A stretch of 64,000 nucleotides of DNA, from assembly GCA_038257155.1 (NCBI GenBank), contig JBBSJP010000015.1, positions 31,542 to 95,541 of the forward strand, read 5' to 3'. How positions within the stretch are numbered: position 1 is the first letter of the stretch; each line of letters begins with the position of its first letter. The translations under genes were made by a program, and so were the position numbers. This DNA comes from Lysobacterales bacterium. Lineage in GTDB: Bacteria > Pseudomonadota > Gammaproteobacteria > Xanthomonadales > Xanthomonadaceae. This document shows, piece by piece, positions 9,058-35,646 of this stretch. The notes under the pieces are model-generated. The model did no database searches. It was not told where the DNA came from and was given only the letters and a program-made list of their open reading frames with translations.

Positions 9058-9966
9058 TCAGCTGCGGCGCACGCCGTCGATGCGGATCCAGTCTTCGCGA
9101 CGCGCGACCGAAAGCGCGTCGAACCAGGGTGCGTAGCGTGTCAGCAGCGCATCTTCCTGCCCCGCCAGAATGCCGGACAGCGCAATGCGTCCGCCAGGCG
9201 CAACCCGGCTCGCGAGGGTTTCTGCCAGAGCGTCCAATGCCGTAGCCAGGATGTTGGCGACCACCACCGGATACATTGCGGGCGGCTCCTGCTCGGGAAG
9301 ATGCACGCTCAAGCGGGTGCCGACACCGTTGCGCTCGGCGTTGTCGGCCGTGGCGATCAGTGCTTGCGGATCATTGTCAACGCCGACCGCGCGTTCGGCC
9401 CCCAACAGCAGCGCTGCCAGCGCCAGGATCCCTGATCCGCAGCCGAAGTCGAGCACCGCTTTGCCTTCCAGTTCGAGGCCATCCAGCCAGTCCAGGCACA
9501 AGGCCGTGGTTGGATGCGTGCCGGAACCAAAGGCCAGGCCAGGATCGAGTCGAACCACCACCGCGTCCGCAGTCCGCGCGGCATCGGGCAGTTCGCGGTT
9601 CCAGGGCAGGATCCAGGTGCGCCGCCCGAACTGCAGGGGTTCGTACTGATCCATCCAGGCGCGTTCCCAGTCCTGATCCTCGACCACCTCGAACTGCACG
9701 CCGGACAGATCCAGTCCCGGATCGAAAGACTCCAGCGCATGTAGCAGCGTCTGCTCGTCCGTACCGGCGGGAAACAACGCGTTCAGCACCATGTCCTGCC
9801 ACAGCGGCTGCTCTCCGACGCCCGGCTCGAAAATCGCCTGCTCGTCGGGCGCCTCGGCGTGCGCATCGGTCAGTGTGACCGCCAGCGCGCCGACGTCTTC
9901 CAGCGCCTGTTCAAGACGCGGTTGCTGTGATTCTGTGCAGGTCAAGGATAGTTGCAGAAAGGGCAT
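9058..9966 (-). CDS. prmA: Ribosomal protein L11 methyltransferase
   Basis: SAM-binding motif [20 protein letters not shown] plus GVDNDPQAL. Start chosen at internal ATG 9966 (MPFLQL...), giving a typical ~303 aa length; the ORF track extends further upstream. Confidence 0.85.
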
Positions 9967-10311
9967 TGCTGGATTTGACTGATTCGTGGGTCGGCGCGCG
10001 ATCTCAGGGAGGCTCGTGCAGCGCAATTGTGCGGTGATTACGCATAGCTGCAAGCCTGCTCGGGCAGGTGCTGGCAAGGTGTCGGTTCGATCTTGCTGCC
10101 GAGGATAACGGACTGTCATGCGTAAGGTGCATTCGGATCGGTTCAAAGGGCGATCGGTGCCTTGCAACCAGGCGGTGCCAGGTTGTCGATACGGTCAGCA
10201 GTTCTTGATCCGATCTGGCGGGGGTTCCGGGGTCCGGTGCGGGGTCCCGGGCGAGCTCAGGCCAGCCGGTGACCGACCCCGCCCCGAACCGAACCGTTAC
10301 AGCCAGCGCGC

Positions 10312-11898
10312 TTACTCGAAACCTGCGCGGAACACCCCCGCCGGATCACCCAGCGCTGTGATGGTGCCGGCACTGAACGCGCCCTCGCCCATGGCCTTGA
10401 TGCCGGTTTCCAGGACAGGCGGGACAACGCCGTCCTCCAGTTGAACCAATGCCGGCTTCAGGGCGCCTGTGACACCATCGATGCTGGCTTCTTCCGCAGA
10501 CACGAGCGTTCCCGGCAGCAGTTGGGCAAAGAAGGCTTCGCGTGTCAGCAGTTTCCCGGCAGCGTCCCGAAAAGCCGCCATCGAGGTGTCGATGGTGCGG
10601 CCCAGCACCTCGAGGGTGGGGTTGGCGATGGCGGTCACCGGGCCCTGTAGTCGCAGGTCGGCCACGTCTGGCGTTCCACGCTCGCGCAGCCGGGTCAGGA
10701 ACAGCATGCCGTTGGCATCAATGAAGGCTCGCAGTTCGACCTGCACCTCCGCAAGCGGACCATCGGGCAGTAACCCATCCTCATCGCGAACCTGTGGGGC
10801 CGCGACGAAATGCAAACCCAGAAGTTCGACCGAGGCGTCACCAGTGAAGGCGCCCGCATCGGCCGGTGCGATCAAACGCACCTGGGCCTGCAAAAAGCGT
10901 ATTTCGGTGGCAGTCAGCACGCCGGCATTGGCATCGAATTGACCATGCGCTTCGATCCGCACGCCCTCGTCCAGATCGTCCGGCGTGCCGCCGCGGAAGT
11001 CAGTCTGCGGGGTCGCATTGATGGTCACACCGGCTAGTTCGAAGGACAGCGGATCAGGCATCGGGTCCGCCAGGGCGGAGATGATTCCCTCAATTGAAGC
11101 ATCGCCTTCGGCAGGCTCGAACTCGTCGAACGCAGCGTCTTCACAGCTCGCCGAAACCACACCCTGCAGCGTGGCACCCGCGGCGAAGGCAGGATCAGGC
11201 ACCGCTTCTATCTCCACGAAGTGCCCCGGCTGAAGTGGACCACTGCAGTTGGCGGCTGTCACCCCCGAAATGTCCACCGCCTGCGCACCGATCGTCAGCG
11301 AATTGGCCGTTGCCGTCGTGATCGCGCCGGTTAGCTTCCAGTCCTGACCAGGATCGTCCATTCGGGCGATTCGGGTCGCTACCACCGTTCCGGCGATGAG
11401 GTCGGGAAAACCGCTGACTTCGACCTGATCGCCGATCGCGAGCGCTTCCAGTCCTGGCAAGCCATCGAACACCGTATCCCCGGTCACTAGCAGGGTCTGA
11501 GTTAGCACACTGGGTGGATCGATGCCGGTCATCGGGCCGCGCAGCAGGGTTTCGATGCGGATCATGTCCGCCACTCGAATACCGGCTGCATCCGGTGGCG
11601 AAGATGCCTCGACGTAGGCGCGATGGCCGCGTGCCAGTCGCAGCGCCTCGAGCGGAGCCAGCGTGTCGTTGTCGAGCAGGACAAGGGTGTCATCCGTTAC
11701 TCGGTACACGCCGGAGGCATTGATCCGAACCAGATCCTCGGGGCGTGCGTGAACACTCCCGGCGGCAAGTGCCAACGTCAATGCGAGCGCACCTGAATGC
11801 AGAAGAAGTAACCGATGGGACGGAAGGGTCATGCGAGACTCCAGTGAATACGGACGAGCGGAACGGTGGCTGGCCGTCAGGTTGTTGGGTGCGTTCAA
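10312..11898 (-). CDS. Secreted hypothetical protein (DUF5666-like repeats, tentative)
   Basis: Signal peptide MTLPSHRLLLLHSGALALTLALAAGSVHA (M23). The ATG at 11898 overlaps the upstream gene's stop by 4 nt (ATGA). Repetitive beta-rich sequence. Confidence 0.55.
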   Translation of the reverse strand: MNAPNNLTASHRSARPYSLESRMTLPSHRLLLLHSGALALTLALAAGSVHARPEDLVRINASGVYRVTDDTLVLLDNDTLAPLEALRLARGHRAYVEASSPPDAAGIRVADMIRIETLLRGPMTGIDPPSVLTQTLLVTGDTVFDGLPGLEALAIGDQVEVSGFPDLIAGTVVATRIARMDDPGQDWKLTGAITTATANSLTIGAQAVDISGVTAANCSGPLQPGHFVEIEAVPDPAFAAGATLQGVVSASCEDAAFDEFEPAEGDASIEGIISALADPMPDPLSFELAGVTINATPQTDFRGGTPDDLDEGVRIEAHGQFDANAGVLTATEIRFLQAQVRLIAPADAGAFTGDASVELLGLHFVAAPQVRDEDGLLPDGPLAEVQVELRAFIDANGMLFLTRLRERGTPDVADLRLQGPVTAIANPTLEVLGRTIDTSMAAFRDAAGKLLTREAFFAQLLPGTLVSAEEASIDGVTGALKPALVQLEDGVVPPVLETGIKAMGEGAFSAGTITALGDPAGVFRAGFE

Positions 11899-13451
11899 AG
11901 CGTTCCGCGCAGATAGACATTTGCGCCGCGAACCACTTCGATGAGCTTGCCCCGCGGATCGAAGTCAAGTAGGAGACTCCCGTCTCGTTCGGGGAAGCGG
12001 AAGCGCAACTCGCCTTCTTCGCCCGCGACCTGCACGGTGCCGCGGGTGACGCCGCCGACACGAAGCTCATAGCTGCCGTCATCAAGGTCTTCGACTTCGA
12101 CCTCGAATTCCTGCTCATTGCCGAAGGACTCGTACTGGGCTTTGCCCGAGGCATCGGCATCCATTCCGGTGGCCTGCAAGACGGTGCTGACAGAACTGCC
12201 GGCAGGAGGCGGAGGCGGTGTGCTACCCGAGTCATCACCGTCGCTAATGGAGGGCGTCAGGGGAAACACGCCGCTGATTGAAGTTCCATTCGGACCGAAT
12301 ACTGCAAGCACCTGCCCACGGGGATCGAAGTCGAGCAGCAACTTGCCCGGCTCGACCGGATTACGGAACTCGAGCTCGCCCTCAGTGCCGTCGGGGAAGG
12401 ACTGCACGGTCAACATGCCGCGTGTCACGCCTCCGACCTGGACCTGGTAGTCGCCGACCGGAACGTCCTCCAGCTCAAGCGAAAACTCGACCCGGTCGCT
12501 GCGTTGCTCGAGTTCGGCGTGCAACTCGGGGCCGTCGTTACCGGACGGCTCCACCACCAGTTCGTAGTACCCGCTACCGGTCGGAACGCCGCCACTGGGT
12601 GGTGGAGTGGGCGCGGGTGCATCGCTGCTGGTCACGCTGCCCCGGAACCATTCGCTGGCCCCGGAGGAAACCGAGAGCAGGCGTCCGCGCGGATCGAAAT
12701 CAAGCAGTTGCTTGCCCGGCTCCGCTGGGCTTCGGAACTCGAGCTCGCCGCGCGTTGAGGCCGCCGTGGACGTGACCATGATCGTGCCCTTGAACTCGCC
12801 ATCCACGCGGAAGTCGTAGTTTCCTGCCGGAACATCCTCAAGTTCGATGCTGAACTCGGTGCGATCCGGGCGCTGCTCGAACTTGACCTTGGCTGTGCCT
12901 CCAGCAGGCGCGCCTACCGGATCCAGGAAGCGCACCAGCTCCACTGCGCTGCCATCGCTGGGCCGATCATCCGAAAGGCCACCCGTGCAGTGCCCGTTGA
13001 AAAGCTGGGTCAGCCGCGTCAGTGGCATGATTCCGCTTGCGGAGCCCGCCGCGAACGGCGTGAAGTTGAGCTGTCCGTTGGTGCAGCTGGAGAAACTGAG
13101 CTGCAGTACCCCCCACGGCTCCACCACCACATTGGACGGCTGGAAATTGCCATCGAAGCTGCCGCCGCGGGTGCGGTAAGCCGTCACCGTAACGCTGTCG
13201 CCCACAACCGGGCCCGAGCCGTGCAGCCACAGCTGGGTGCCGTCCGGTTCGTAGGTGAACCAGTACATCACGGCTGTCTTGCCTGCAGCCGAGTCCACGA
13301 CTTCAAGTCCAAGCCCATGCCCGGAACGGCTTGGTTCATACCAGGCTGCGGTGAACTCGCGGGTAATGGCGACCGCATCGGCAGTAGGAAGCAGCGATGC
13401 CTGGCCAAGCACAACGGCGAGGGCGATGGCGAGGGGACGGATGGAACGCAT
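11895..13451 (-). CDS. Secreted protein with three internal ~105-aa tandem repeats
   Basis: Signal peptide MRSIRPLAIALAVVLGQASLLPTADA. Three repeats share the pattern [E/Q]..R.DR.EFS[I/L]ELEDVP.G.Y...V.G...G...V.......GELEFR.P.EPGK.LLDFDPRG, separated by Pro/Ser/Gly linkers. Confidence 0.7.
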   Translation of the reverse strand: MRSIRPLAIALAVVLGQASLLPTADAVAITREFTAAWYEPSRSGHGLGLEVVDSAAGKTAVMYWFTYEPDGTQLWLHGSGPVVGDSVTVTAYRTRGGSFDGNFQPSNVVVEPWGVLQLSFSSCTNGQLNFTPFAAGSASGIMPLTRLTQLFNGHCTGGLSDDRPSDGSAVELVRFLDPVGAPAGGTAKVKFEQRPDRTEFSIELEDVPAGNYDFRVDGEFKGTIMVTSTAASTRGELEFRSPAEPGKQLLDFDPRGRLLSVSSGASEWFRGSVTSSDAPAPTPPPSGGVPTGSGYYELVVEPSGNDGPELHAELEQRSDRVEFSLELEDVPVGDYQVQVGGVTRGMLTVQSFPDGTEGELEFRNPVEPGKLLLDFDPRGQVLAVFGPNGTSISGVFPLTPSISDGDDSGSTPPPPPAGSSVSTVLQATGMDADASGKAQYESFGNEQEFEVEVEDLDDGSYELRVGGVTRGTVQVAGEEGELRFRFPERDGSLLLDFDPRGKLIEVVRGANVYLRGTL

Positions 13452-13756
13452 GGGAAAGCTCCGGAAATCTGCGCGTCGAACGTCGACGCAACCGTGAAGT
13501 CAGTGTCATCAAATGGGGAGTAGGCAGGAATGGGTAAAAACCCCTGCCCCATCAGGGCGGCTTTGCCCAGCGCTAAAATGGAACAGATGGTCGATCCGAA
13601 GGCCGAAACGGGCGGCCGCGCGGTGTCGCCTGGGGGGAAAACCTCAGCTGGGCGGGTATTTCCGCCTAGCGCGCCACGGAATGTGGGCGAACCACTCGAC
13701 GCGCGCGCGACAGGGCTCTAAGGTTGAGAAGTATTTCTTCCTGGTTGGCACTTGTC

Positions 13757-14608
13757 ATGCGCGCGTCCCGAACCTGCCTGCTTGGCGCATTCCTCGCCGG
13801 ATCGATGATCGGCCCAGCGGCCTTTGCTGCGAGCACGATCAACGTGACCATCGTGGGTGACGTTGCGACGGCGGCTATCGAGGTGGACGACGGTGTAGAC
13901 AGCTATTCGGCCACACTCCGCCTGAGCTTCCAGCAGCCGCAGAACCTGACTGCCGCCTGCCTTGGCATAGACGCGGAACTGCTTGATGCGGGCGCGATTG
14001 CGGCCCTGGATGCGCGCTTGCCCGATCCGGCAGGTCAGCAGATCGATCCTGACTTTCCTGTTCGCATCGTTGTCGAACCGCCCCCAGGTTGTGGCTTGAG
14101 CTTCGTCAACGAGGTTTCCTTCGAACTGCACACCACAGAACTGAACTACACACCCTTCTCCCCATACCGACTGGTGAAGGCACCGATTGGAGGCGCCTTC
14201 GCTGACATTACGGCCGCGGTAGAGTCCGGCAGCATCCGTGCGCGGGGCAGCGGAGGCGCGTTCTCAGAGTTCGCCATGGTGCAGGATCTATCACAGGATC
14301 ACGCGCTGGATGCCGAGGGCCTGTTTGATGAGCTTTCCAACGAACTCGACGACCCGGACATAGCCCTAACCGCGCGCAGCACGCTGGAAGCTGATCTTGC
14401 GGTGGCCCGCGGCGCTTTTGATTCCAATCAGATCGCCGATGCGAGAACCGCCCTGGCCGGCTTCGAATCCGACTTGCGCGCGCTGGCAGGCGTGGGGGTG
14501 GACAACGATTACGATGCCGGCACCGCGCTTCCCAGTGAAGTGGGTGAGTTGCTCGGAATCAGTGGCGCCCTGGGCTTCCGGCTGGGGCGGCTGGACGGCG
14601 TTCCATGA
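13757..14608 (+). CDS. Secreted hypothetical protein, first gene of the FHA/kinase operon
   Basis: ATG 13757 with signal peptide MRASRTCLLGAFLAGSMIGPAAFAAS. Stop overlaps the next start (ATGA at 14605-14608). Confidence 0.6.
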   Translation: MRASRTCLLGAFLAGSMIGPAAFAASTINVTIVGDVATAAIEVDDGVDSYSATLRLSFQQPQNLTAACLGIDAELLDAGAIAALDARLPDPAGQQIDPDFPVRIVVEPPPGCGLSFVNEVSFELHTTELNYTPFSPYRLVKAPIGGAFADITAAVESGSIRARGSGGAFSEFAMVQDLSQDHALDAEGLFDELSNELDDPDIALTARSTLEADLAVARGAFDSNQIADARTALAGFESDLRALAGVGVDNDYDAGTALPSEVGELLGISGALGFRLGRLDGVP

Positions 14609-15492
14609 AGCAACCGGCCGCTCGGCTGGTCATCCATCTGCGCGGAGAGGCCAGCCAGAGTCACCTGCTTGACGATGATTGCCGGCATCACTTGGGACGC
14701 GACGCCGGGGTCGACATCAGCATCCCGCACCCATCCGTGTCACGTCGGCACGCCGCCCTTGAGCGACGCGATGGCCTCTGGTACCTGCTGGACCTGGGAT
14801 CCAAGAACGGCACCTTAATCGACGGCCGCCCGGTCCAAGAGACGCCCCTGGATGCGCCGACCTGGTTTTCAGTGGGCGACGTGTTCTGTGAATTCCAGCC
14901 ACTCAGCGCAACCGCACTGACCCGTATTCGCGAAACCGCCGCCACCCGACGGCATTCGTCGGCAGCCTGGCACGCTCGCGTCAATGTGCGACGCGGCATC
15001 GAGACCCTGCTTGCGGATGTCCTTGAGGGCGCCATCGACATCGCACAATGCCGTAGAGGCGTACTTCTGACTGGCATCAAGTCGGGCTCGCTCGACGTGG
15101 CTGCGGCTTTTTCACCGCCCGGAGAGGATCCTGCAGCCGCGCCGGAATGGAGCCGGACTGCCGTGGAGCGGGTCCTGCGTGAACGACGCCCTGTCTACCT
15201 GTCGAGTCAATCCGATCGCGCCTGGCTCAAGAACGCAGCTTCGGTCGTGGGGCAGGGGCTACGCTCACTGGCCTGCCTTCCGCTACTTTGCAGCGGGCGC
15301 CTGCTGGGCGTGCTCTATGTCGACACCGATGAATCGGCCAAAGTGTTCGATCAGCTGGATGTCGAACTGCTCGATGCGTTCGCCGAACGGGCCGCGTCCG
15401 CATTGGCACTGGCCGATATTGAACACACACTGCGCGCTATCGAGGCCGATGCCCTGATCGTCGCGCCGACGCCCAAGGGAATGCAGACGTGA
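14605..15492 (+). CDS. FHA domain - GAF domain protein
   Basis: N-terminal FHA signature (GRDAGVDISIPHPSVSRRHAALERRDGLWYLLDLGSKNGTLIDGRPV). C-terminal GAF-like fold (LACLPLLCSGRLLGVLYVDTDE). 4-nt overlaps on both sides. Confidence 0.75.
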   Translation: MKQPAARLVIHLRGEASQSHLLDDDCRHHLGRDAGVDISIPHPSVSRRHAALERRDGLWYLLDLGSKNGTLIDGRPVQETPLDAPTWFSVGDVFCEFQPLSATALTRIRETAATRRHSSAAWHARVNVRRGIETLLADVLEGAIDIAQCRRGVLLTGIKSGSLDVAAAFSPPGEDPAAAPEWSRTAVERVLRERRPVYLSSQSDRAWLKNAASVVGQGLRSLACLPLLCSGRLLGVLYVDTDESAKVFDQLDVELLDAFAERAASALALADIEHTLRAIEADALIVAPTPKGMQT

Positions 15493-18400
15493 CCGCGCCG
15501 GGTGCCCGTACGGTGATCCTGCCGGCAGGCGCCACGGTTACGGGGCTGTTGGCCGTGTCCCAGCTGCTGCCTGGGGACCGCGTGGCGCAGCGTTACGTGA
15601 TTCGCCGCATGCTTGGCATGGGCGGCATGGGTGTGGTCTACCTGGCGCAGGACGAACAGCTGAACATCGAGGTGGCCCTTAAGCTGCTGCGTCCGGAACT
15701 GGCCTCACGCCCCGACGCGTTCGAGCGTTTTCGCAACGAGGTGCTGCTGGCGCGGCAGGTATCGAGCCCGCACGTGGTCCGCATCCATGACCTCGTCCAG
15801 CACGAGGGCGCCTGGTTGCTGAGCATGGACTATGTTCCAGGCAGGCCGCTCGACCGCATCATCGATACCGAGGCGCCGCTCGCGCCGGACCGCGCACTGA
15901 ACCTGGTGCGACAGATCGCGCTGGGCCTGGCCGCCGCGCACCACCGCGGCGTGATTCATCGCGATCTCAAGCCCGCGAATGTCATGGTTTCCGACGATGA
16001 CGACGTGCAGATCACGGACTTCGGTGTGGCGCGCTCACTTGGTGCAACCGGACTCACCATGAGCGGCATGGTGGTCGGAACGCCCGAGTACCTGTCACCC
16101 GAGCAGGCCCGGGCCGACCCGGTTGATGGACGCAGTGATCTTTATGCCTTGGGACTTATCCTGCACGAGCTGTTGAGTGGACGATTGCCTTACGCGGGCG
16201 GCACACCGGCTGAAATGCTGGCTCAGCGCATCGTGCGCAGCCCGCCATCGGTCGCGCGAAGCCGTAGCGATCTGCCGCCGTTCGCGGTCACGCTCTGTGA
16301 CCGGTTGCTCGACGTGCGGCCTTCACGGCGCCTGCCCAGCGCCGAGGCTGTCGCGCGCGCGATCGAATCGCGCCACCTGCCATCGGCAGCTCTCCCGCCG
16401 CCAAGGCAATTGGCTCTGGTTGCCGGGTTGGCGATCGCGGCAACTGCGACGATCTGGTTTTCATCAGGACCCGTCTCGCGGATCGCCGTCCCGGCCGGGC
16501 CAGTTGCCGTCGCACCGGCGGCTTTGGCGGTACTGCCAGGCGATGCACCAGTCAGCGATGAGGATGCCGACCTGCAGCTAGGCTTGGTGCGTGCCCTCGC
16601 CGCGCGACTTTCACAAGGCGGCCTGGACACACTCGATTCCGCCCGCATTGAACGTAGCCTGCGTGAACTGGACATCGACCGCCACCAGATCGAGCGTCAA
16701 TGGCCGCGACTGATTCCGGCGCTCAATCTGCGCCAGTTTCTGAGCCTGGATATTGATCGCACTCCGGTCGGCCTGCAGGTCCAGTTGGCGATACGGGACG
16801 GAACCTCTCTGGAAACCCTGTGGCGCGATAGCGTGACGCTGGACGCGGCGCGCGATTCGGACGCAGATCTGGCACCGATAGGTCCGCTGCTGCGGCGCCT
16901 CGAGCAGTTCCTTCAAGCTGCACGACCTTTGAGGGATCTGCCCGATACCGCATCGATCCAACGGCTGGGAAGAATCTCGCCCTGGGATGGCGCAGCTTCG
17001 CTGCCGGCAGCGTCGCTGGGAGCGACCGCGTCCATCGACGAAGGGTGGTTTACGTTGAGTGTGCTGGAACGGGACGGACGCAATGCCGAGGCGCAGTCGC
17101 ATGGGCGCGAATGGATTCGCAGGCTGCAAGGGCAAGAGTCCGAACCTGCACTGCGCCTGCGTGCGCTGGCCGAGTACCTGACCGGTGCGCCGGAGGCCTC
17201 GCTCGAATTGATAGATGCATTGCCCGCCCGGGACACCGCCGTTAGCGAGCTGCGCGCACGGGCACTCATTGCACTGGGCCGATATGAGGACGCGGGGGAG
17301 GTGCTGCAGGCCCTGGTTAATCGCGACCCGCGCAATGTGGACGCCTGGTTCCAGCTGGGCAAGGCGCAATTGCAAATGGGACACGCGCAGACTGCGGTGG
17401 ACGATGCCTTGACTCGCGCGCTGGTGGTTGCCAACCGTCAGCGCGACCGACGCATGCAGGCCGACATCACCAATGCACTTGGTATCGGCTACAGACAATT
17501 GGGTCAGCTGGAGGCCTCCATTGAGCAGTTCGAACGAGCCGCCAGCCTGCGTGGGTCGCTGGATGATCCACGTGGACAAGGAGTCAGCCTGCGAAACCTC
17601 GCAGCGGCGCGCTCAATCGTCGGCGACTTCGACGGCGCAGACCAGGCCCTGTCGCAGGCGCGCAAGTTGCTGGAACCGATCGGCGATCCAGCAGTCTTGG
17701 CCGATCTGATAAATGACGTGGGCATGGTGGCAGAGGAACGCGGTGATTTCCGAGCGGCGCTGGACGCCTATCGCGAGGCTCTGGGATTCCGGCAGATGAC
17801 GGGGGACTCGGTATGGGTTGCCGCGAGTCTGCTCAACGTGGGCTTCGCGTACTACTTCGTGGGCGAGTTCGACAACGCACAGGTATTCCTTCAACAGGCC
17901 GAGCAAACCTACGCCACCATCGACGACCAAGCCGGTGCCATACGTGCCCATCAGGGGCTGGGTCTTGCCGAACTCGCGCGCGGCAATTTCGCGCGTTCCC
18001 GCGCGCTGGTGGAACAATCCCTGCTCGATGCGGAAACACTACAGATGCGCGAGGAGCAGAGCACTGCACTTGCCGCGCTGGCCGAACTTGACCGCCTCGA
18101 GGGTGACTACGGGTCGGCCTTGCGCCGCGCCCAGGCCGCCGCCAGTCTTTTCGAGTCGCGCGGAGACGCCCGCGGCCTTACTGAAATGCACTTGTTGCAG
18201 GCCGAGGTAGGTCTTGACATTGGCGACTGGGATGCGGCCGATGCCGCTCTGCAAACGGCACTGCAGGAGGGCATCCCGAATGCGGAGCAGCGTGCCATTG
18301 CGCTTACCCTGTCCGGCAGACTGTCACTGGTGCGCGGGGACCCGAAACAGGCGGCGGCGCTAGCGGCCGAAGCCTTGGACATAGCGGGCGGTGCTGGTGC

Positions 18401-18812
18401 TGCAGCGGCCAAGGTCAAGGCACGCCTTGTCTCGGCACGTGCGCAACTGGCTTTGGGCCAATCTTCCTCGGTCGGCGAAACGCTGCGTGATACGACCGCT
18501 GAACTTGAGCGCTTCGCCAGCCTGCCCTTGCGTCTTGCGGTGCTCGAGACGCGCCTCGCGACCACTCAGGGGGACGTCAATGCTTACCGGGACGCACGGA
18601 CCCTGTTGGCCATGCTGCCCGCTTTTGGTGCGGAATGGCGCCTAGCGGCCACCGCCGCCCGGAGTGGGCTGCCTGAAGCCGAGCGGCGCGAAGCGGGCCA
18701 GCGTGCGCGCCTAGCGTTGCAGCGCGTTGCGGCGGGCCTGGAACCACCACGCCGGGAGCGGTTTTTGGCGTGGGCCGAACCACAGATTCCTGTCGGAGAA
18801 GCGACCCCATGA
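15489..18812 (+). CDS. Hanks-type Ser/Thr protein kinase with TM segment and C-terminal TPR array
   Basis: GTG start overlapping the upstream stop. Kinase motifs LGMGGMGVVY, VALKLL, IHRDLKPANVM, TDFGVAR, GTPEYLSPEQ. Hydrophobic segment LALVAGLAIAATATIWF, then ~650 aa of TPR-like repeats. Confidence 0.85.
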   Translation: MTAPGARTVILPAGATVTGLLAVSQLLPGDRVAQRYVIRRMLGMGGMGVVYLAQDEQLNIEVALKLLRPELASRPDAFERFRNEVLLARQVSSPHVVRIHDLVQHEGAWLLSMDYVPGRPLDRIIDTEAPLAPDRALNLVRQIALGLAAAHHRGVIHRDLKPANVMVSDDDDVQITDFGVARSLGATGLTMSGMVVGTPEYLSPEQARADPVDGRSDLYALGLILHELLSGRLPYAGGTPAEMLAQRIVRSPPSVARSRSDLPPFAVTLCDRLLDVRPSRRLPSAEAVARAIESRHLPSAALPPPRQLALVAGLAIAATATIWFSSGPVSRIAVPAGPVAVAPAALAVLPGDAPVSDEDADLQLGLVRALAARLSQGGLDTLDSARIERSLRELDIDRHQIERQWPRLIPALNLRQFLSLDIDRTPVGLQVQLAIRDGTSLETLWRDSVTLDAARDSDADLAPIGPLLRRLEQFLQAARPLRDLPDTASIQRLGRISPWDGAASLPAASLGATASIDEGWFTLSVLERDGRNAEAQSHGREWIRRLQGQESEPALRLRALAEYLTGAPEASLELIDALPARDTAVSELRARALIALGRYEDAGEVLQALVNRDPRNVDAWFQLGKAQLQMGHAQTAVDDALTRALVVANRQRDRRMQADITNALGIGYRQLGQLEASIEQFERAASLRGSLDDPRGQGVSLRNLAAARSIVGDFDGADQALSQARKLLEPIGDPAVLADLINDVGMVAEERGDFRAALDAYREALGFRQMTGDSVWVAASLLNVGFAYYFVGEFDNAQVFLQQAEQTYATIDDQAGAIRAHQGLGLAELARGNFARSRALVEQSLLDAETLQMREEQSTALAALAELDRLEGDYGSALRRAQAAASLFESRGDARGLTEMHLLQAEVGLDIGDWDAADAALQTALQEGIPNAEQRAIALTLSGRLSLVRGDPKQAAALAAEALDIAGGAGAAAAKVKARLVSARAQLALGQSSSVGETLRDTTAELERFASLPLRLAVLETRLATTQGDVNAYRDARTLLAMLPAFGAEWRLAATAARSGLPEAERREAGQRARLALQRVAAGLEPPRRERFLAWAEPQIPVGEATP

Positions 18813-19588
18813 ATTCGTCGTCGCCTGCAGAACACACGCCAGCGAATGCCCTTCAGCGTCAGCTCGAGCAGTTGCGCGCGGACCAGGAGCGCTTGTTCCG
18901 GGAGCTGCAGAGCGGCGAATCGCGCCTGCGGCGAATCGCGCGCTCTGTGTCACGAATCGAAGAGGACGAGCGACGCCGCATTGCGCGTGATCTGCATGAT
19001 GGCGTCGGGCAAAACCTGTCGGCCCTGCGGCATCGTATCGAGGCGATACGTCCGCGACTCGATGCCGCTGATGGCATAAAGCTGCTGGACGAGGCACTCG
19101 AGATTTGCGGCCAGACCCTGGCCGACACGCGCCATCTGGCCCGGCTGCTGCGCCCACAGATCCTCGATGACCTCGGGCTTGAAGCGGCCTTGCGCTGGCT
19201 TGCCGCGAGCTGTGCCTCGGCGATCGGCTGCGAAATCGAAGTCGAAGCGAGCCTGGACGAAGCCGAACTTGACCCCGAGCTCAGTGCGTTGGCCTTCCGG
19301 ATCGTGCAGGAGTCGCTGACCAATGTGGTCCGGCACTCGCAGGCTAGCCACGTGACGATCCGCGTCGCCAGCCGCGGCGGGCAGCTCGCCGTCGTGGTGG
19401 TGGACGATGGTATTGGGTTCGACGTAAAAGCGTCCCAGGCCGCCGGCAGCCAGGCCCGCAGCGCTGGTCTCGCCGGCATGCAGGAGCGCGTGGGCCTGTT
19501 CGGCGGGCGCCTCAACCTGATCTCCGGTTCCGGCGCTGGAACCCAGGTGCGGGCGCATATTCCACTGTCCCTGCGAGCCGACACGTGA
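18809..19588 (+). CDS. Cytoplasmic sensor histidine kinase (HisKA_3 + HATPase_c, no TM or sensor domain)
   Basis: ATG 18809 overlaps the kinase stop (ATGA). H-box RRRIARDLHDGVGQNLSAL, G-boxes VVVVDDGIGF and GLAGMQERV. Confidence 0.8.
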   Translation: MNSSSPAEHTPANALQRQLEQLRADQERLFRELQSGESRLRRIARSVSRIEEDERRRIARDLHDGVGQNLSALRHRIEAIRPRLDAADGIKLLDEALEICGQTLADTRHLARLLRPQILDDLGLEAALRWLAASCASAIGCEIEVEASLDEAELDPELSALAFRIVQESLTNVVRHSQASHVTIRVASRGGQLAVVVVDDGIGFDVKASQAAGSQARSAGLAGMQERVGLFGGRLNLISGSGAGTQVRAHIPLSLRADT

Positions 19589-20229
19589 AGCGCATTCGCG
19601 TCATCGTCGCTGACGATCACACCATCCTGCGTGAAGGTGTCGTGGCCCTGCTTGAACGCAGCGGCGACATTGATGTCATCGCGCAAGCCAGCGACGGACT
19701 TGAGGCCGTCGAAGCCTCGCTCCGTCTGACACCCGATGTGATCGTCGTGGACATCGCCATGCCCGGGCTGTCTGGCCTAGAGGTGGTGCGACGATTGTCT
19801 GGTGATGGCTCCCGCATCCGTGCCCTGGTCCTCACCATGCATGCCGAGTCCGAATATGTGGTGCATGCGGTGCGTGCTGGTGCCTCAGGTTTCCTGCTCA
19901 AGGACAGTCCCGCGAGCGAGATGGTTGCCGCGGTGCGCACGCTTGCGGCGGGACGCGCCCATTTCGGCGGGCATGCCGCAGCGGTGCTGGCCCAGCAGAT
20001 GCTAGTTCCCAAGGCAGCGCTCGATGATCCCTACCGTGATATGACTGCCCGCGAGCGCGAAGTATTCCACCTCGTGGTCGAAGGTCTTACCAGCAAGGAA
20101 ATCGCCCACAAGCTCGACACCAGGCTCAAGACCGCCGAGAACCACCGCGCGCGGGTGCTGGACAAGGCGGGTGTGCGCAATAGCGCGGAACTGGTGCGCT
20201 ACGCAGTGCGGCACGGACTGTTCGACTAA
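19585..20229 (+). CDS. NarL/LuxR-family response regulator
   Basis: GTG start overlapping the HK stop. Receiver motifs (VADDH, DVIVVDIAMPGLSG) and C-terminal LuxR HTH (REREVFHLVVEGLTSKEIAHKLDTRLKTAENHRARVLDKAGV). Confidence 0.85.
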   Translation: MKRIRVIVADDHTILREGVVALLERSGDIDVIAQASDGLEAVEASLRLTPDVIVVDIAMPGLSGLEVVRRLSGDGSRIRALVLTMHAESEYVVHAVRAGASGFLLKDSPASEMVAAVRTLAAGRAHFGGHAAAVLAQQMLVPKAALDDPYRDMTAREREVFHLVVEGLTSKEIAHKLDTRLKTAENHRARVLDKAGVRNSAELVRYAVRHGLFD

Positions 20230-20243
20230 GGAACGAGATCGTT

Positions 20244-21509
20244 TTAGGGCAGGTTCGCGGGGCAGCCACTCGATGAGGGTTCAAGGCCGTCGGCAAACAC
20301 TTCCTCGGCCGGACGAAAGGCCAGCGCCAGGCCGACACGGTTCGTGAGGGGCGCGCTGGCCAGGCTCAGATCGCCCGCCTGCGCCAGTGCAAATCCGAAG
20401 GCGCCTGACGGTCTGCTGCGCCGGGTCGCCAGCACGCGGCCACTCCATGCCGACAGGCCGACTGGCTCGAACCACTCCGCCGTGCCACAGGCTTCACTGC
20501 CATCATCACCGGCAAACGGTGCCGCGGCCAGGATGCCGTTCGCGCTGAGCGAGACCGCCCATCCGAACCGACCGCCGGCTCGCGGCTGCGTCGAGGCAAG
20601 CGACGCAGCGGGCAGCCACGCGACTCCATCATGTTCGAATACGTCGACTCGACCTGTGCGCATGAGGTTGCCGGGAACACCGATGATGGCGCGTGTGCCC
20701 AGCAAAGCGAGCTGGCTGCCGAACCGGTCGCCGTCTGCCGCGGCTGTTGGCAGCAACATGCCCTGCGACTGCCAGCTCAATCCGTCGAAGTCGAAAGCGA
20801 CTACGGCACCGCGCGCGTAGGCTGCACCCGCACCGTCGGGATCGTACGTGGGCAGGCTGACCAAGGCTCGGTTGCCGCTCTGGGCGACACTGAAACCGAA
20901 GCGCTGTTGCGGAGCCGGAACTGGCGACTGCAGTCGCTCGCGGAATACCCAGGTGCCGGCCTCGCGCGCGAACGCGTACACCGCACCGCTGTTCTCAGCC
21001 ACTGCAGGGGCGCCCACCAGCAAACGATCGCCGGACAGGGCCAGGCTCCAGCCGAAGCGGGCATTGCTCTCGCCATCGGGCACGACAAGTCGTTGCGCAT
21101 GGGTCCATGTGCCCACCTGCAATTCAAACAGGTCGACATGGCCATCGTCGCGTTCCGGGCTGCCAACGGCGAGACGGCTGCCATCGAGAGACAAGGCGGC
21201 ACCAAACGCTTGTCGATCGCGTGGCTTCACGGCTTGGAGGCGCTGCACGGGGGCACAGCCTCCGGCGTCGCAATTGAATGCGTGCACTGCACCCGCTGCG
21301 CTGTCCTCGCCCGGCGCTCCAAGAAAAACCCAATTGCCGCCAGCGACGAGGGCATGGCCACGGTCAGCAAGCGCCTCGGAGTCCGAAATCGGTGCATTCA
21401 ACACATCGATTTCGTAACTTGCCACGGGCAGTGTGAACGCCAGCAGCGCGAACCCGGCAACAAGGCCCAGAGGCTCGATCCGAGTGTGCTTGAAAAGGCT
21501 GCAATCCAT
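20244..21509 (-). CDS. Secreted FG-GAP repeat (integrin-alpha-like beta-propeller) protein
   Basis: Signal peptide. Repeated FG..GAP-like units (RFGWSLALSGDRLLVGAP, RFGFSVAQSGNRALVSLP, RFGSQLALLGTRAIIGVP, RFGWAVSLSANGILAAAP). Convergent with the operon end. Confidence 0.75.
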   Translation of the reverse strand: MDCSLFKHTRIEPLGLVAGFALLAFTLPVASYEIDVLNAPISDSEALADRGHALVAGGNWVFLGAPGEDSAAGAVHAFNCDAGGCAPVQRLQAVKPRDRQAFGAALSLDGSRLAVGSPERDDGHVDLFELQVGTWTHAQRLVVPDGESNARFGWSLALSGDRLLVGAPAVAENSGAVYAFAREAGTWVFRERLQSPVPAPQQRFGFSVAQSGNRALVSLPTYDPDGAGAAYARGAVVAFDFDGLSWQSQGMLLPTAAADGDRFGSQLALLGTRAIIGVPGNLMRTGRVDVFEHDGVAWLPAASLASTQPRAGGRFGWAVSLSANGILAAAPFAGDDGSEACGTAEWFEPVGLSAWSGRVLATRRSRPSGAFGFALAQAGDLSLASAPLTNRVGLALAFRPAEEVFADGLEPSSSGCPANLP

Positions 21510-21909
21510 TGACGCAGTGTGCGTCGAAGCACCGCTGGACTGTCAAGCCGCGACTGAGGGAAAACACCCAGGTAAGACACAGCGGTTCAGGCAGCAGGCA
21601 GATTGATCAGGCTGACGAAGCCTCAGCTTCCTCCCAAGGTCCTCGACGGTTGCCGCCCCGCTGCCTAGCCGTGCCTGAACCTGTTTCGGCGTGAAGCAGG
21701 CTATGCGAATAGCCTCCAATCGCCGTGGGGCGAAACAGGCTGCATGCCGAAAGCGACCCGAAGACAAGAGAGCGGAACTTCCGAGGTACAAGAAAATGAC
21801 TTGTTAGCGCCGCACGCGACAGCTGCTGCTGTTGCCCATGACGCTCTGGTCGCCGCTGCCACGCCCGCAGGCGCAGTGTCATCGAAGCGAGATAACCTCA
21901 GCGCCTCTC

Positions 21910-23283
21910 TCACCCCAAATCAATCGCCTTTTCCTTGTGCTCCTTCAGCCGCTTCTCCAGGTAATGGATGTTCATCCCACCCTGTTGAAAACCGACATCC
22001 GACAGGATGCGCTGCTGCAGCGGGATGTTGGTCTTGATGCCATCGACCACCATCTCTGACAGAGCCACCCGCATGCGGGCGATGGCTTGGGCGCGGTCGG
22101 CGCCGTGCACGATCAGCTTGCCGATCATCGAGTCGTAGTTGGACGGCACCCGATAGCCCTCGTAGATGTGGCTGTCGACTCGAACGCCGGGGCCACCTGG
22201 GGCGTGGAAATGCTTGATCAGGCCGGGGCAGGGCAGAAAACTGTCCGGGTCTTCGGCGTTGATTCGGCATTCGATGGCGTGGCCGCGCAGCACGATATCC
22301 TGCTGGCGAATCGACAGTGGCCGGCCGGCGGCGATCATCAGCTGCTCGCGTACCAGGTCGACGCCGGTGATCATTTCGGTCACCGGATGCTCGACCTGGA
22401 TGCGGGTGTTCATTTCGATGAAATAGAAGCGGCCCTCCTCGAACAGGAATTCGAAGGTGCCCGCGCCGCGGTAGCCGATGCGGATGCAGGCCTCGACGCA
22501 GACCTTGCCGATCTCGGCGCGCTGCGCTTCGGTGATGCCGGGTGCCGGTGCCTCTTCAACCACCTTCTGGTGACGGCGCTGCATCGAGCAGTCGCGCTCG
22601 CCGAGATGTATTGCATTGCCCTGGCCATCGGCCAGTACCTGGATCTCCACGTGCCGTGGGTTCTCCAGGAATTTCTCCATGTACACCATGTCGTTGCCAA
22701 ACGCGGCCTTGGCTTCCGACTTGGTGGTCGCCACGGCGTTGGGCAGATGCGCTTCTGTGTGCACCACCCGCATGCCGCGTCCACCGCCACCGCCGGCGGC
22801 CTTGACGATGACCGGATAGCCGATTTCGCGCGCGATGCGCACGTTCTCTGCCGGATCATCGCCCAGCGGTCCGCCCGAACCCGGCACGCAGGGCACGCCA
22901 GCCGCCTTCATTGCACGAATGGCCTCGACCTTGTCGCCCATCAGGCGGATGGTGTCGGCCTTTGGCCCGATGAAGATGAAGCCGCTCTGCTCGACGCGCT
23001 CGGCGAAGTCGGCGTTTTCAGAGAGAAAGCCATAGCCCGGATGAATGGCCTGGGCATCGGTGACCTCGGCTGCGGCAATGATTGCCGGGATGTCGAGGTA
23101 GCTGCGGTTGGATGGCGGCGGGCCGATGCAGACCGATTCATCGGCCATCGCGACGTGCTTCAGGTTGCGATCGACGGTGGAATGCACCGCGACGGTCTGG
23201 ATGCCCAGCGCATGGCAGGCCCGCAGGATGCGCAGCGCGATCTCGCCACGATTGGCGATGACTACCTTGTCGAGAGTGTTCAT
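21910..23283 (-). CDS. accC: Acetyl-CoA carboxylase biotin carboxylase subunit
   Basis: Start at internal ATG ([23 protein letters not shown]...). ATP-grasp motifs. ~457 aa. Confidence 0.92.
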
Positions 23284-23564
23284 GCGGCGCTCCGGTACCA
23301 CACGCGCACGACTTGAACGCGTTGGGCAGTAAGTTCGAACATCCCGATGTTGTAGCGGACGTCATCGTGCGCGCTGGTGGAAGACTGCTCAGCCGCGGAC
23401 TGAGGCAGGATCAGGGTCTCGATGCTGAGCACGTCGACCTGCTCGCGCGCGATCCAGGCATTGGTTGCTTCAAGCACGGTATCCATGGTCTGCCGGCCAC
23501 CGATGGCCAGGCCGAGGACTTTCTGCTTCCAGTCGGGGGCGAAGTCGCGAAAACGGATTTTCAT
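23280..23564 (-). CDS. Small hypothetical ORF wedged between accB and accC (ATG 23564; alternative GTG 23576 overlapping accB stop)
   Basis: 94-aa [26 protein letters not shown]... filling an unusual 289-bp accB-accC gap. No recognised family. Coding status is uncertain. Confidence 0.35.
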
Positions 23565-28051: not shown

Positions 28052-28377
28052 TCATCGGTTTTCCGGTGAGGTCTCGGTTTGAATCCAGGACAGATAGGCT
28101 GGTAGGCCATCGGAGATGTCCACGGCGATGATCTCCGGCACATCAAAGCGGTGCAGCGCCTCAATTCGATCGCGCAGGGCGGCAAAGCGCTGCGCAGTCG
28201 TCTTGATCATCAGCAGGACCTCCGCGGCCTCCTCGATCCGGCCTTGCCAGCGGTACACCGAACGGACCTGCGGCAGCTGGTTCACGCATGCCGCAAGCCG
28301 CTGTTCGACGAGGTCTCGCGCGATGCTGCTGGCGGAGTCTGCATCGGGGCAGCTACAGAACACGATGAGTTCGGACA
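28052..28377 (-). CDS. cutA: Divalent-cation tolerance protein CutA
   Basis: 108 aa, MSELIVFCSCPDADSASSIARDLVEQRLAACVNQLPQVRSVYRWQGRIEEAAEVLLMIKTTAQRF... Lies at the 3' end of a long spurious antisense ORF. cutA-dsbD order is conserved. Confidence 0.8.
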
Positions 28378-28486
28378 TGGTCGCGAGCGAATGGATCGTC
28401 AGAAGGAGGTATTGAAGCCAGCCATGGTACGCGGAACCTGCCGGGCGCTTCTGGCACCATGCAGGCAGTCCACAGACTGCACGCCA

Positions 28487-35234: not shown

Positions 35235-35476
35235 GCGGATTCCTACCGGTTGAGCGGCGGACTGCTGCCGCCATGGCCCCTGATTGACCCCGCCGATCAT
35301 AGTCCTGTCCCGCTGCCGGGTGGAGGCGAGGCAGTCCAGTCCACGCAGCGTCGGAACTTGCCGACCCTCGACTCGGGCACGAGCGACCAGCGGCGCGCCA
35401 AGGTGAACCGAAGACCGGAACCAAGCCCGTTGCGGTGCGTTTGTCTGCGTCCCCGATCTACTTTCGGATCGACGGA

Positions 35477-35646
35477 CCCTAGGAGCCTGCGCGGCGGAAG
35501 CAATCGAGGCGAAAGCGAGACTGCGCGAGAGCGGAGTTTCGACGATTCGCCGGCCTGTAGTGGTTCTACAGGCCAAGAATCGGCGGAATTCCGGGCCGCG
35601 CAGGCGCGGTTGCAGCCCGGTTGTCTTCTGCCGCGCAGGCTCCTAG
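35477..35646. other. Structured GC-rich element in the 5' leader of the beta-propeller gene (long-range inverted repeat plus internal hairpin)
   Basis: CCTAGGAGCCTGCGCGGCGG (35477-35496) is complementary to CCGCGCAGGCTCCTAGG (35630-35646). Internal hairpin GCCTGTAGTGGTTCTACAGGC at ~35552-35574. Confidence 0.4.

Follow-up and report, generated by a model that had tools for sequence, protein, structure and literature searches.

Cross-talk between eukaryote-like Ser/Thr kinases and two-component systems is well documented, mostly for kinases that are unlinked and promiscuous and act on regulators, and for this reason its physiological wiring has been hard to establish. In Pseudomonas aeruginosa, the H1 type VI secretion system (T6SS) pathway with PpkA, Fha1 and TagR has as its output the post-translational activation of a secretion machine, and a PP2C phosphatase, PppA, is linked to it. 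EspA of Myxococcus xanthus is an FHA-containing hybrid histidine kinase that operates with the Ser/Thr kinases PktA5 and PktB8. The Mycobacterium tuberculosis kinases DosS and DosT have the architecture GAF-GAF-HisKA_3. In Bacillus subtilis, the cytosolic HisKA_3 kinase DegS is a phosphorylation substrate of Hanks-type kinases, which stimulate its transfer to DegU (PMC3033389). PMC6213207 lists PpkA/Fha1 and gives references for the phosphorylation of DosR by PknH and the action of PrkC on WalR. Here we describe a five-gene cassette at positions 13757-20229 of a 64,000-nucleotide stretch of DNA from a Lysobacterales bacterium (contig JBBSJP010000015.1; the whole stretch is called the window). 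It encodes, in this order, a DUF6689 protein (g1), an FHA-GAF protein (g2), a Hanks-type Ser/Thr kinase with a transmembrane (TM) helix and a TPR region (g3), a HisKA_3 histidine kinase (g4) and a response regulator with REC and GerE domains (g5). We consider it reasonably probable that in this cassette a Hanks-type Ser/Thr kinase pathway is connected with a two-component output, by the mechanism set out below.

Comparison with described systems

The cassette resembles a mix of PpkA/TagR/Fha1, of DegS/DegU or DosS/DosR, and of EspA, and is a member of none of these systems. With the PpkA pathway it appears to share a bitopic Hanks kinase that extends into the periplasm, a co-encoded periplasmic accessory protein and a cytoplasmic FHA protein as partner that depends on phosphorylation. 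Unlike in that pathway, the FHA domain is fused to a GAF domain, and a histidine kinase and a response regulator form the output. DUF6689 and TagR are unrelated as far as family and fold comparison show. Membership in a T6SS threonine-phosphorylation pathway was considered and rejected: the genes on either side of the cassette include no T6SS or PP2C families, be it in the window or in the other loci read, and the VI_FHA model TIGR03354 gave 25 bits against a cut-off of 120.

DegS/DegU also pairs a cytosolic sensor-less HisKA_3 kinase with a LuxR/NarL regulator, and its histidine kinase is modulated by Ser/Thr kinases (PMC3033389). These kinases are unlinked and promiscuous and there is no FHA/GAF protein, whereas the cassette kinase is encoded between, and overlapping, its presumed partners. 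In EspA, as would be the case in the cassette, the connection from Hanks kinases to histidine-kinase signalling runs through an FHA domain. However, EspA carries FHA, PAS, kinase and receiver in one polypeptide and has no DNA-binding regulator, while in the cassette the FHA-GAF protein and the histidine kinase are separate and the output is a NarL-type transcription factor. DosS/DosT-DosR together with PknH (a reference in PMC6213207) shares with the cassette GAF, HisKA_3, a NarL regulator and a Hanks kinase acting on the same regulon. In DosS and DosT, GAF domains and kinase form one protein, and PknH, an unlinked kinase, targets the regulator; the GAF domain of the cassette sits on a separate FHA protein, as if a sensor kinase had been split and made dependent on phosphothreonine docking. 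The actinobacterial PknB-GarA and PknG-OdhI pairs are similar in having a PknB-like kinase and a GarA/OdhI-like FHA domain, which the T-x-S motif of the activation loop could recruit, but GarA and OdhI are small FHA-only regulators of metabolic enzymes without GAF domain, two-component partner or cassette. The cassette is not assigned to the PpkA, Deg/Dos or EspA systems because no T6SS or PP2C genes lie nearby, because FHA protein and histidine kinase are separate, and because the kinase is genetically fixed to its partners. Within the library searched, no paper was found to mention DUF6689, this domain combination or the cassette. The cassette appears to be undescribed; its component domain families are known, and cross-talk between Ser/Thr kinases and two-component systems is known in principle.

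Five genes in a fixed order

The original prediction, made from the sequence alone, described five open reading frames (ORFs) as one signalling unit. The ORF list, Pfam and the gene calls on L001, a public 12.5-kb contig from the same organism, confirm the five genes, all on the + strand, and the domains that had been named. The order DUF6689, FHA-GAF, Hanks kinase-TM-TPR, HisKA_3 kinase, REC-GerE regulator was found in 25/25 independent loci, as far as the contigs reach; most of these loci are from Lysobacterales, the others from relatives named Thermoanaerobaculia. A scan of one genome per species, queried with the 12 closer DUF6689 sequences, found 17 species-level genome loci with DUF6689, each with the identical order as far as the contig extends. 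Because these 12 sequences were used and not the 27-sequence DUF6689 alignment, the scan is biased towards Lysobacterales, and distant DUF6689 members were reached only by individual look-ups. These gave five metagenomic loci, again with the same order; among the distant members (31-39% identity), the cassette is present in L019, L021 and L023 and its beginning in L022. Distant stand-alone FHA-GAF proteins (31-37% identity) served as an independent query and led to the full cassette, with the DUF6689 gene upstream, at 4/4 loci. DUF6689 homologues belong mainly to Lysobacterales (Pseudomarimonas, Chiayiivirga, Dokdonella, Rhodanobacteraceae), and a few come from relatives named Thermoanaerobaculia.

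Comparative genomics had been proposed as a check on conservation of the order, and every DUF6689 or FHA-GAF homologue with readable context lies in it. The idea that homologues of these genes are never co-located elsewhere is decisively contradicted. Our data show that the five genes are a fixed syntenic unit, and comparative genomics supports their being a functional unit. None of the five proteins attains an NCBIfam equivalog cut-off, and for this reason none is called a named orthologue.

Stop/start overlaps between the genes

All four junctions are 4-nt stop/start overlaps, as originally described: ATGA at 14605 (g1/g2), GTGA at 15489 (g2/g3), ATGA at 18809 (g3/g4) and GTGA at 19585 (g4/g5). 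An overlap of this kind (-4) is the commonest distance between co-directional prokaryotic genes; it couples the translation of the two genes, and genes for heteromeric complexes and interacting subunits are enriched for it (PMC10666635). The stop [AGT]TGA is also frequent in G+C-rich DNA. Since the -4 junction is so common and this stop so frequent at high G+C, the overlaps alone are weak evidence. The background frequency of -4 overlaps was taken from published genome-wide statistics (PMC10666635); a gene call by codon-position G+C (GC3/GC2), tried for the background of the window itself, discriminated poorly, and the operon's own genes failed its filter.

The junctions were compared in 25 loci besides the window, at protein identities of 31-69%. 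Counting the window as well (26 loci), a start codon at -4 is present at g4/g5 in 21/21 loci, at g2/g3 in 22/25, at g3/g4 in 15/21 and at g1/g2 in 6/26. At g1/g2 the overlap is not conserved, and the usual arrangement elsewhere is a gap of 8-19 nt. Exceptions at g3/g4 are mostly short overlaps of 11 or 17 nt, or a 13-nt gap. A further exception is L011, from a Lysobacterales metagenome-assembled genome, where the kinase gene is disrupted (in pieces within L011:11871-15253) and the histidine-kinase ORF has no in-frame start; this cassette is either pseudogenised or affected by assembly errors. Conservation of -4 starts over 25 other loci is, unlike a single overlap, not ordinary. The census per junction therefore identifies the tight coupling of the four cytoplasmic-face proteins (g2-g5) as a conserved trait, which the coupling of the secreted protein g1 to them is not.

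Overlaps of this kind could be artefacts of gene calling, the genes being separately initiated with gaps and internal promoters. Alternative in-frame starts do exist (for g3 at +20 in the window and at +17 in some loci, for g4 a GTG at 18770), and [AGT]TGA stops often arise by chance at high G+C. We nevertheless regard this as highly improbable. The kinase and regulator N-termini are conserved from the -4 start: the kinase has 'MTxPG(R)...T.TG' from residue 1 among orthologues, and the regulator alignment begins at residue 1 in every locus. An independent gene caller gave the identical five starts on L001, no internal promoter-like site and no convincing terminator-like site was found within 13757-20229, and -4 starts recur at g2/g3 and g4/g5 at the frequencies given above. 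On the other hand, the 'obligate co-translation' that had been read from the overlaps is too strong a term. The -4 distance is the default bacterial junction, the g1/g2 overlap is not conserved, and g3 and g4 have Shine-Dalgarno-like sequences of their own (AAGGGA and GGAG, respectively), 12-14 nt upstream and within the preceding gene. The overlaps permit termination-reinitiation coupling, the geometry for which is present and conserved for g2-g5.

Domain composition of the five proteins

The g3 protein matches Pkinase (PF00069, E 2.5e-47), TPR_12 (1.3e-20) and PknB (8e-52). The elements of a Hanks-type kinase, GMGGMG, VALK, HRDLKPAN, DFG and TPEYLSPE, are present and conserved in orthologues, and the activation loop is PknB-like with a conserved T-x-S. 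A TM helix at ~305-330, with basic residues before it, recurs in nearly all full-length orthologues, two of which stay below the hydropathy threshold; its position is conserved and its sequence is not. Since the kinase domain must face ATP and there is one TM helix, the C-terminal ~780 residues, TPR array included, are predicted to lie outside the cytoplasm and to share their compartment with the signal-peptide-bearing DUF6689 protein. This speaks against the TPR array as a cytoplasmic interaction platform; the original prediction had taken it for a protein-interaction sensor. A second kinase-TPR paralogue, 948 aa long and extended by 180 aa at its N-terminus (Pkinase 3.6e-45, TPR_12 5.5e-37), is encoded at 28151-30997 (+) in the window. 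It stands alone between cutA/dsbD (- strand) and an mscS-like gene, without FHA, histidine kinase or response regulator partners.

In the g2 protein, the phosphothreonine-binding residues GR / SVSRRHA / SKNG are conserved in 25 orthologues. The FHA domain has the defining Gly-Arg, Ser-x-x-His and Asn-Gly residues, and phosphothreonine binding is predicted. It is most similar to FHA-1 of Rv1747, GarA and OdhI, and the NCBIfam EspA model gives a weak match to it. The GAF domain is always attached to the FHA domain in the cassette, through a linker with a conserved RRxSS motif, and there is no TM segment. In a sister architecture at L028:5992-11560, a fusion of FHA-GAF with an adenylate/guanylate cyclase domain is encoded between two kinase-REC-cyclase fusion genes; the FHA-GAF and kinase genes there are bracketed by AHH nuclease/Imm11 toxin-immunity pairs. 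From the cyclase fusion, FHA-GAF seems to recur as a kinase-coupled input module for an output enzyme.

The g4 protein consists of an N-terminal coiled-coil-like helical segment of ~50 aa, a DHp domain with the H-box LHDGVGQ and a catalytic domain (HisKA_3 PF07730, 3e-14; HATPase_c PF02518, 8e-14). As in the HisKA_3 class, LHDGVGQ, QESLTN, DDGIGF and GLAGM are conserved. The protein resembles DesK, VraS and DevS, and its catalytic domain matches DevS and DosT. Neither a sensor domain nor a TM segment was found in any of 19 orthologues, which makes g4 a soluble sensor-less member like DegS. The description 'orphan cytoplasmic HK' thus holds for the sensor-less, soluble nature of the kinase and fails for 'orphan', since the regulator gene overlaps g4.

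The g5 protein carries Response_reg (PF00072, 1.9e-25) and GerE (PF00196, 2.7e-13) and has no TM segment. The DD, D, T and K positions of the receiver are conserved as in the NarL/FixJ class, and conservation is high in the helix-turn-helix (HTH) segment. No other cassette protein is as well conserved: identity is 64-73% over residues 1-214 in genome loci L004-L018. The best NCBIfam equivalog is MctR, at 167 bits against a cut-off of 300; being below every equivalog cut-off, g5 is not assigned to a named orthologue.

The g1 protein is a full-length PF20396 (DUF6689) protein (E 4.5e-69; 233 bits, where the cut-off is 27; aligned to positions 8-274 of the 275 in the profile). It is predicted to be periplasmic or secreted, with a signal peptide at residues 1-26 (AFA-AS) and an N-terminal hydrophobic segment in nearly all orthologues. 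The AlphaFold2 model (predicted local distance difference test score, pLDDT, 92) has a beta-sandwich (25-177) followed by a four-helix bundle (182-279). Cys68 and Cys112 are both present or both absent throughout the 27-sequence alignment. A fold search of the PDB gave no convincing or informative match. With clustering at 50%, the DUF6689 profile search returned 411 representatives. Among the top 150, about 30 (P0187-P0253) are 520-670 aa long with two matched stretches, and are for this reason read as tandem-duplicated DUF6689 proteins.

A palindromic candidate operator

The regions upstream of g1 have an 18-bp palindrome in common, with the consensus CTGGGTGGAACCACCCAG and the form CTG-N12-CAG, which is perfect in L007, L009 and L010. 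Its size and symmetry are as expected for a dimeric LuxR/NarL-type HTH protein. A position weight matrix was built from the g1-upstream regions and used to scan the remaining 462 kb of window and locus sequence, with the expectation taken from Markov shuffles. Outside the training regions, 14 matches reached at least 16 bits, where 0.3 were expected, and 6 reached at least 20 bits, where the expectation was 0. Nearly all of these untrained matches are intergenic and adjoin the cassette. Some lie upstream of a neighbouring FG-GAP gene, in most loci with a distance of 33-77 bp between their centre and the gene start, and others upstream of a DUF5666 gene; besides the window, sites upstream of one or the other gene are found in 10 loci. 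In L024 the palindrome precedes a PKD/fn3 gene, and in L014, L015 and L018 an extra first gene. The site before g1 is centred 114-136 bp upstream in most loci with a site, as it is in the window (Table 1).

The weaker window copy ATGGGTAAAAACCCCTGC corresponds in position to stronger second sites 76-87 bp upstream of the orthologous 518-aa gene in other loci. 'Terminator-like' hairpins at 13542-13558 (-), the only ones in the divergent intergenic region, coincide with ATGGGTAAAAACCCCTGC and are better read as the motif. A match at 33528-33545 (CAAGGGGATTTCACCCAG, 15.9 bits) lies within a 1083-aa ORF on the - strand (32325-35576) and is probably due to chance; this ORF has a weak hydrazine-synthase-alpha-like domain match. 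The palindrome marks promoters of the cassette and of adjacent secreted-protein genes, and it is a candidate operator that the g5 regulator would bind.

Proposed signal flow and alternative explanations

The catalytic and phospho-binding residues that a flow of phosphoryl signals through the cassette would need are intact and conserved: GxGxxG/VALK/HRDLKPAN/DFG in the kinase, GR...SxxH...NG in the FHA domain, the H-box LHDGxGQ with N and G boxes in the histidine kinase, and DD...D...T...K in the receiver. From gene linkage, these intact motifs and the precedents named above, we infer that Ser/Thr phosphorylation may feed a two-component output. The periplasmic TPR domain, probably with DUF6689 as an accessory or ligand-presenting partner, would sense an envelope or extracellular cue. 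This would activate the cytoplasmic kinase domain and lead to its autophosphorylation, for which the T-x-S of the activation loop and the near-invariant Thr16 are candidate sites. The FHA domain of the FHA-GAF protein would then dock on phosphothreonine, and the GAF domain may add a cytoplasmic small-molecule input. The FHA-GAF protein, direct Ser/Thr phosphorylation, or both, would set the kinase/phosphatase balance of the sensor-less HisKA_3 kinase. Once phosphorylated, the NarL-type regulator would bind the CTG-N12-CAG palindromes, autoregulate the operon and control the neighbouring genes for secreted beta-rich proteins: the 518-aa, DUF5666 and FG-GAP proteins, and in distant relatives S8/M23 peptidases, PKD/fn3 and BNR proteins. 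The conserved overlaps would probably yield the cytoplasmic partners in fixed proportion for complex formation.

It might also be that the kinase acts directly on the response regulator, as PknH does on DosR and Stk1/PrkC on VraR/WalR, or on the histidine kinase, as in the case of DegS, with the FHA-GAF protein only a substrate, a scaffold or a GarA/OdhI-like feedback inhibitor. The published precedents are all of this direct type (PMC3033389; PMC6213207 and its references), the nearest relatives of the g2 FHA domain are Rv1747, GarA and OdhI, and the RRxSS motif of the linker would suit a GarA-like self-binding phospho-switch. However, direct action would leave unexplained why the GAF domain is constantly attached to the FHA domain and why the histidine kinase lacks a sensor in all loci, and the FHA-GAF-cyclase fusion suggests that FHA-GAF is an input module for an enzyme. 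A phospho-Ser comparable to Ser76 of DegS was looked for in the g4 orthologue alignment and rejected, as none is invariant. The N-terminal segment of g4 has no invariant Ser/Thr among orthologues, and direct modification of the DegS type is for this reason not specifically supported. Direct phosphorylation is the main rival of the adaptor role of FHA-GAF, and the present data do not separate the two; we consider it rather unlikely.

Two co-expressed, parallel pathways could likewise account for the linkage, one of kinase, FHA-GAF protein and DUF6689 and one of histidine kinase and regulator, serving a common process without exchanging phosphoryl groups. For example, the kinase might modify the export or assembly machinery of secreted proteins while the two-component pair controls transcription. 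Operon membership proves co-expression only, and the histidine kinase could answer to an unlinked partner or to its own coiled-coil segment. On the other side, the g2/g3/g4/g5 order and its tight junctions persist at 31-37% identity and in the relatives named Thermoanaerobaculia, the histidine kinase is never found with a sensor domain of its own, and overlapping pairs are enriched for physically interacting subunits (PMC10666635). Parallel pathways seem improbable to us on these grounds.

Several observations nevertheless weigh against the joined pathway that we favour. Gene linkage points to shared function, not to wiring. The missing invariant Ser/Thr in the g4 N-terminal segment, where the Ser in 'LARSVWRVQE' is Ala in 3/19 orthologues, leaves a DegS-like direct modification without specific support in this pathway too. 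Of the loci read, none has a PP2C phosphatase gene in the cassette or beside it. It is a hydropathy prediction only that puts the TPR region in the periplasm. The role of DUF6689, for which no informative structural relative was found, is guessed from where the protein lies and from its gene linkage. The motif upstream of g1 is weak or undetected in the distant loci L019 and L022-L024, and the palindrome could be bound by another regulator.

Taken further than the joined pathway itself, and only tentatively, the cassette might represent a distinct and widespread class of hybrid phosphorelay. In such a class, the Hanks kinase would be the transmembrane receptor for a sensor-less histidine kinase, with TPR/DUF6689 as a new extracytoplasmic receptor. 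The FHA-GAF protein would be an adaptor that turns phosphothreonine, gated by a GAF ligand, into His-Asp control of a secreted-protein regulon via CTG-N12-CAG.

Genes neighbouring the cassette

The genes neighbouring the cassette all encode signal-peptide proteins, and three of them are probable regulon members (Table 1). The 518-aa protein has a predicted structure with an N-terminal avidin/lipocalin-like beta-barrel and three Cu,Zn superoxide dismutase (SOD)-like beta-sandwich repeats of ~110 aa. A dismutase function was considered from the fold search and rejected, as no SOD-type cluster of metal-binding His was found on reading the repeats. Its family comprises more than 730 hypothetical proteins from Xanthomonadales, Marinicella, Wenzhouxiangellaceae and Ahniella, and is far more widespread than the cassette. 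The DUF5666 gene lies downstream of it, with its start as called in L001 (506 aa); DUF5666 homologues adjoin the cassette in 7 loci. The FG-GAP gene is found downstream of g5 in 12/14 genome loci with a contig that extends beyond g5, and in L021. Distant loci have S8 or M23 peptidase, PKD/fn3 or BNR proteins in place of these neighbours.

Loci without the divergent 518-aa gene (L014:8744-9754; also L015 and L018) have an extra gene before DUF6689 on the same strand. It encodes a 336-aa secreted protein, the C-terminal half of which resembles the N-terminal barrel domain of the 518-aa protein, and has a palindrome ~135 bp upstream of its own start.

In the window, a block of ~11.7 kb (DUF5666, 518-aa gene, cassette and FG-GAP) lies between prmA (9058-10167, -) and accC (21910-23301, -), two genes that in gammaproteobacteria usually lie close together. 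In the other genomes, homologues of prmA and accC were not found within 10 kb of the cassette, so that the cluster seems to have been relocated as a unit. The G+C content of the block is the same as that of its flanks.

Table 1. Positions in the window of the cassette genes, their domains, the palindrome copies and the neighbouring genes
Feature	Position	Strand	Residues	Remarks
g1	13757..14608	+	283 aa	DUF6689 protein, predicted periplasmic or secreted
g2	14605..15492	+	295 aa	FHA-GAF protein, cytoplasmic
g2 FHA domain	14692-14877		30-91	PF00498, E 1.1e-16
g2 GAF domain	14995-15408		131-268	PF01590, 2.7e-15; PF13185, 2.7e-14
g3	15489..18812	+	1107 aa	Bitopic Hanks-type Ser/Thr kinase
g3 N-terminal extension	15534-15536 (Thr16)		~35 residues	Thr16 near-invariant
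g3 kinase domain	15594-16352		36-288	
g3 TM helix	16410-16466		308-326	Single
g3 TPR array	17217-18572		~577-1028	Predicted periplasmic region
g4	18809..19588	+	259 aa	Soluble sensor-less HisKA_3 histidine kinase
g5	19585..20229	+	214 aa	NarL/FixJ-class response regulator, REC and GerE/LuxR HTH
Palindrome CTGGGGGGAAAACCTCAG	13630..13647			Divergent promoter region; centre 118 bp upstream of g1 ATG; 16.4 bits
Weaker copy ATGGGTAAAAACCCCTGC	13530..13547			Centre 88 bp upstream of ATG of divergent 518-aa gene; 8.0 bits
Strongest window copy CTGAGGGAAAACACCCAG	21554..21571			Centre 54 bp upstream of FG-GAP gene ATG; 21.0 bits; untrained
Secreted 518-aa protein gene	11895..13451	-	518 aa	Divergent from cassette; probable regulon member
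Secreted double-DUF5666 protein gene	10312..11832	-		PF18914, 2.5e-34; probable regulon member
Secreted FG-GAP-repeat (beta-propeller) protein gene	20244..21509	-	421 aa	FG-GAP_2, 3.7e-36; convergent; probable regulon member

Implications

The cassette holds a single kinase, a single FHA reader, a single sensor-less histidine kinase and a single regulator, encoded by overlapping genes in an order that does not vary. Together with a candidate operator and a small candidate regulon, it would constitute a genetically closed system. As such, it may serve for dissecting a route from phosphothreonine to phospho-aspartate. It also gives a first context to DUF6689, as a possible periplasmic partner of a receptor kinase, and to the 518-aa repeat family, as a probable target. 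Because cultured hosts exist, namely Chiayiivirga flava DSM 24163, Dokdonella fugitiva and Dokdonella immobilis, the proposed model is testable.

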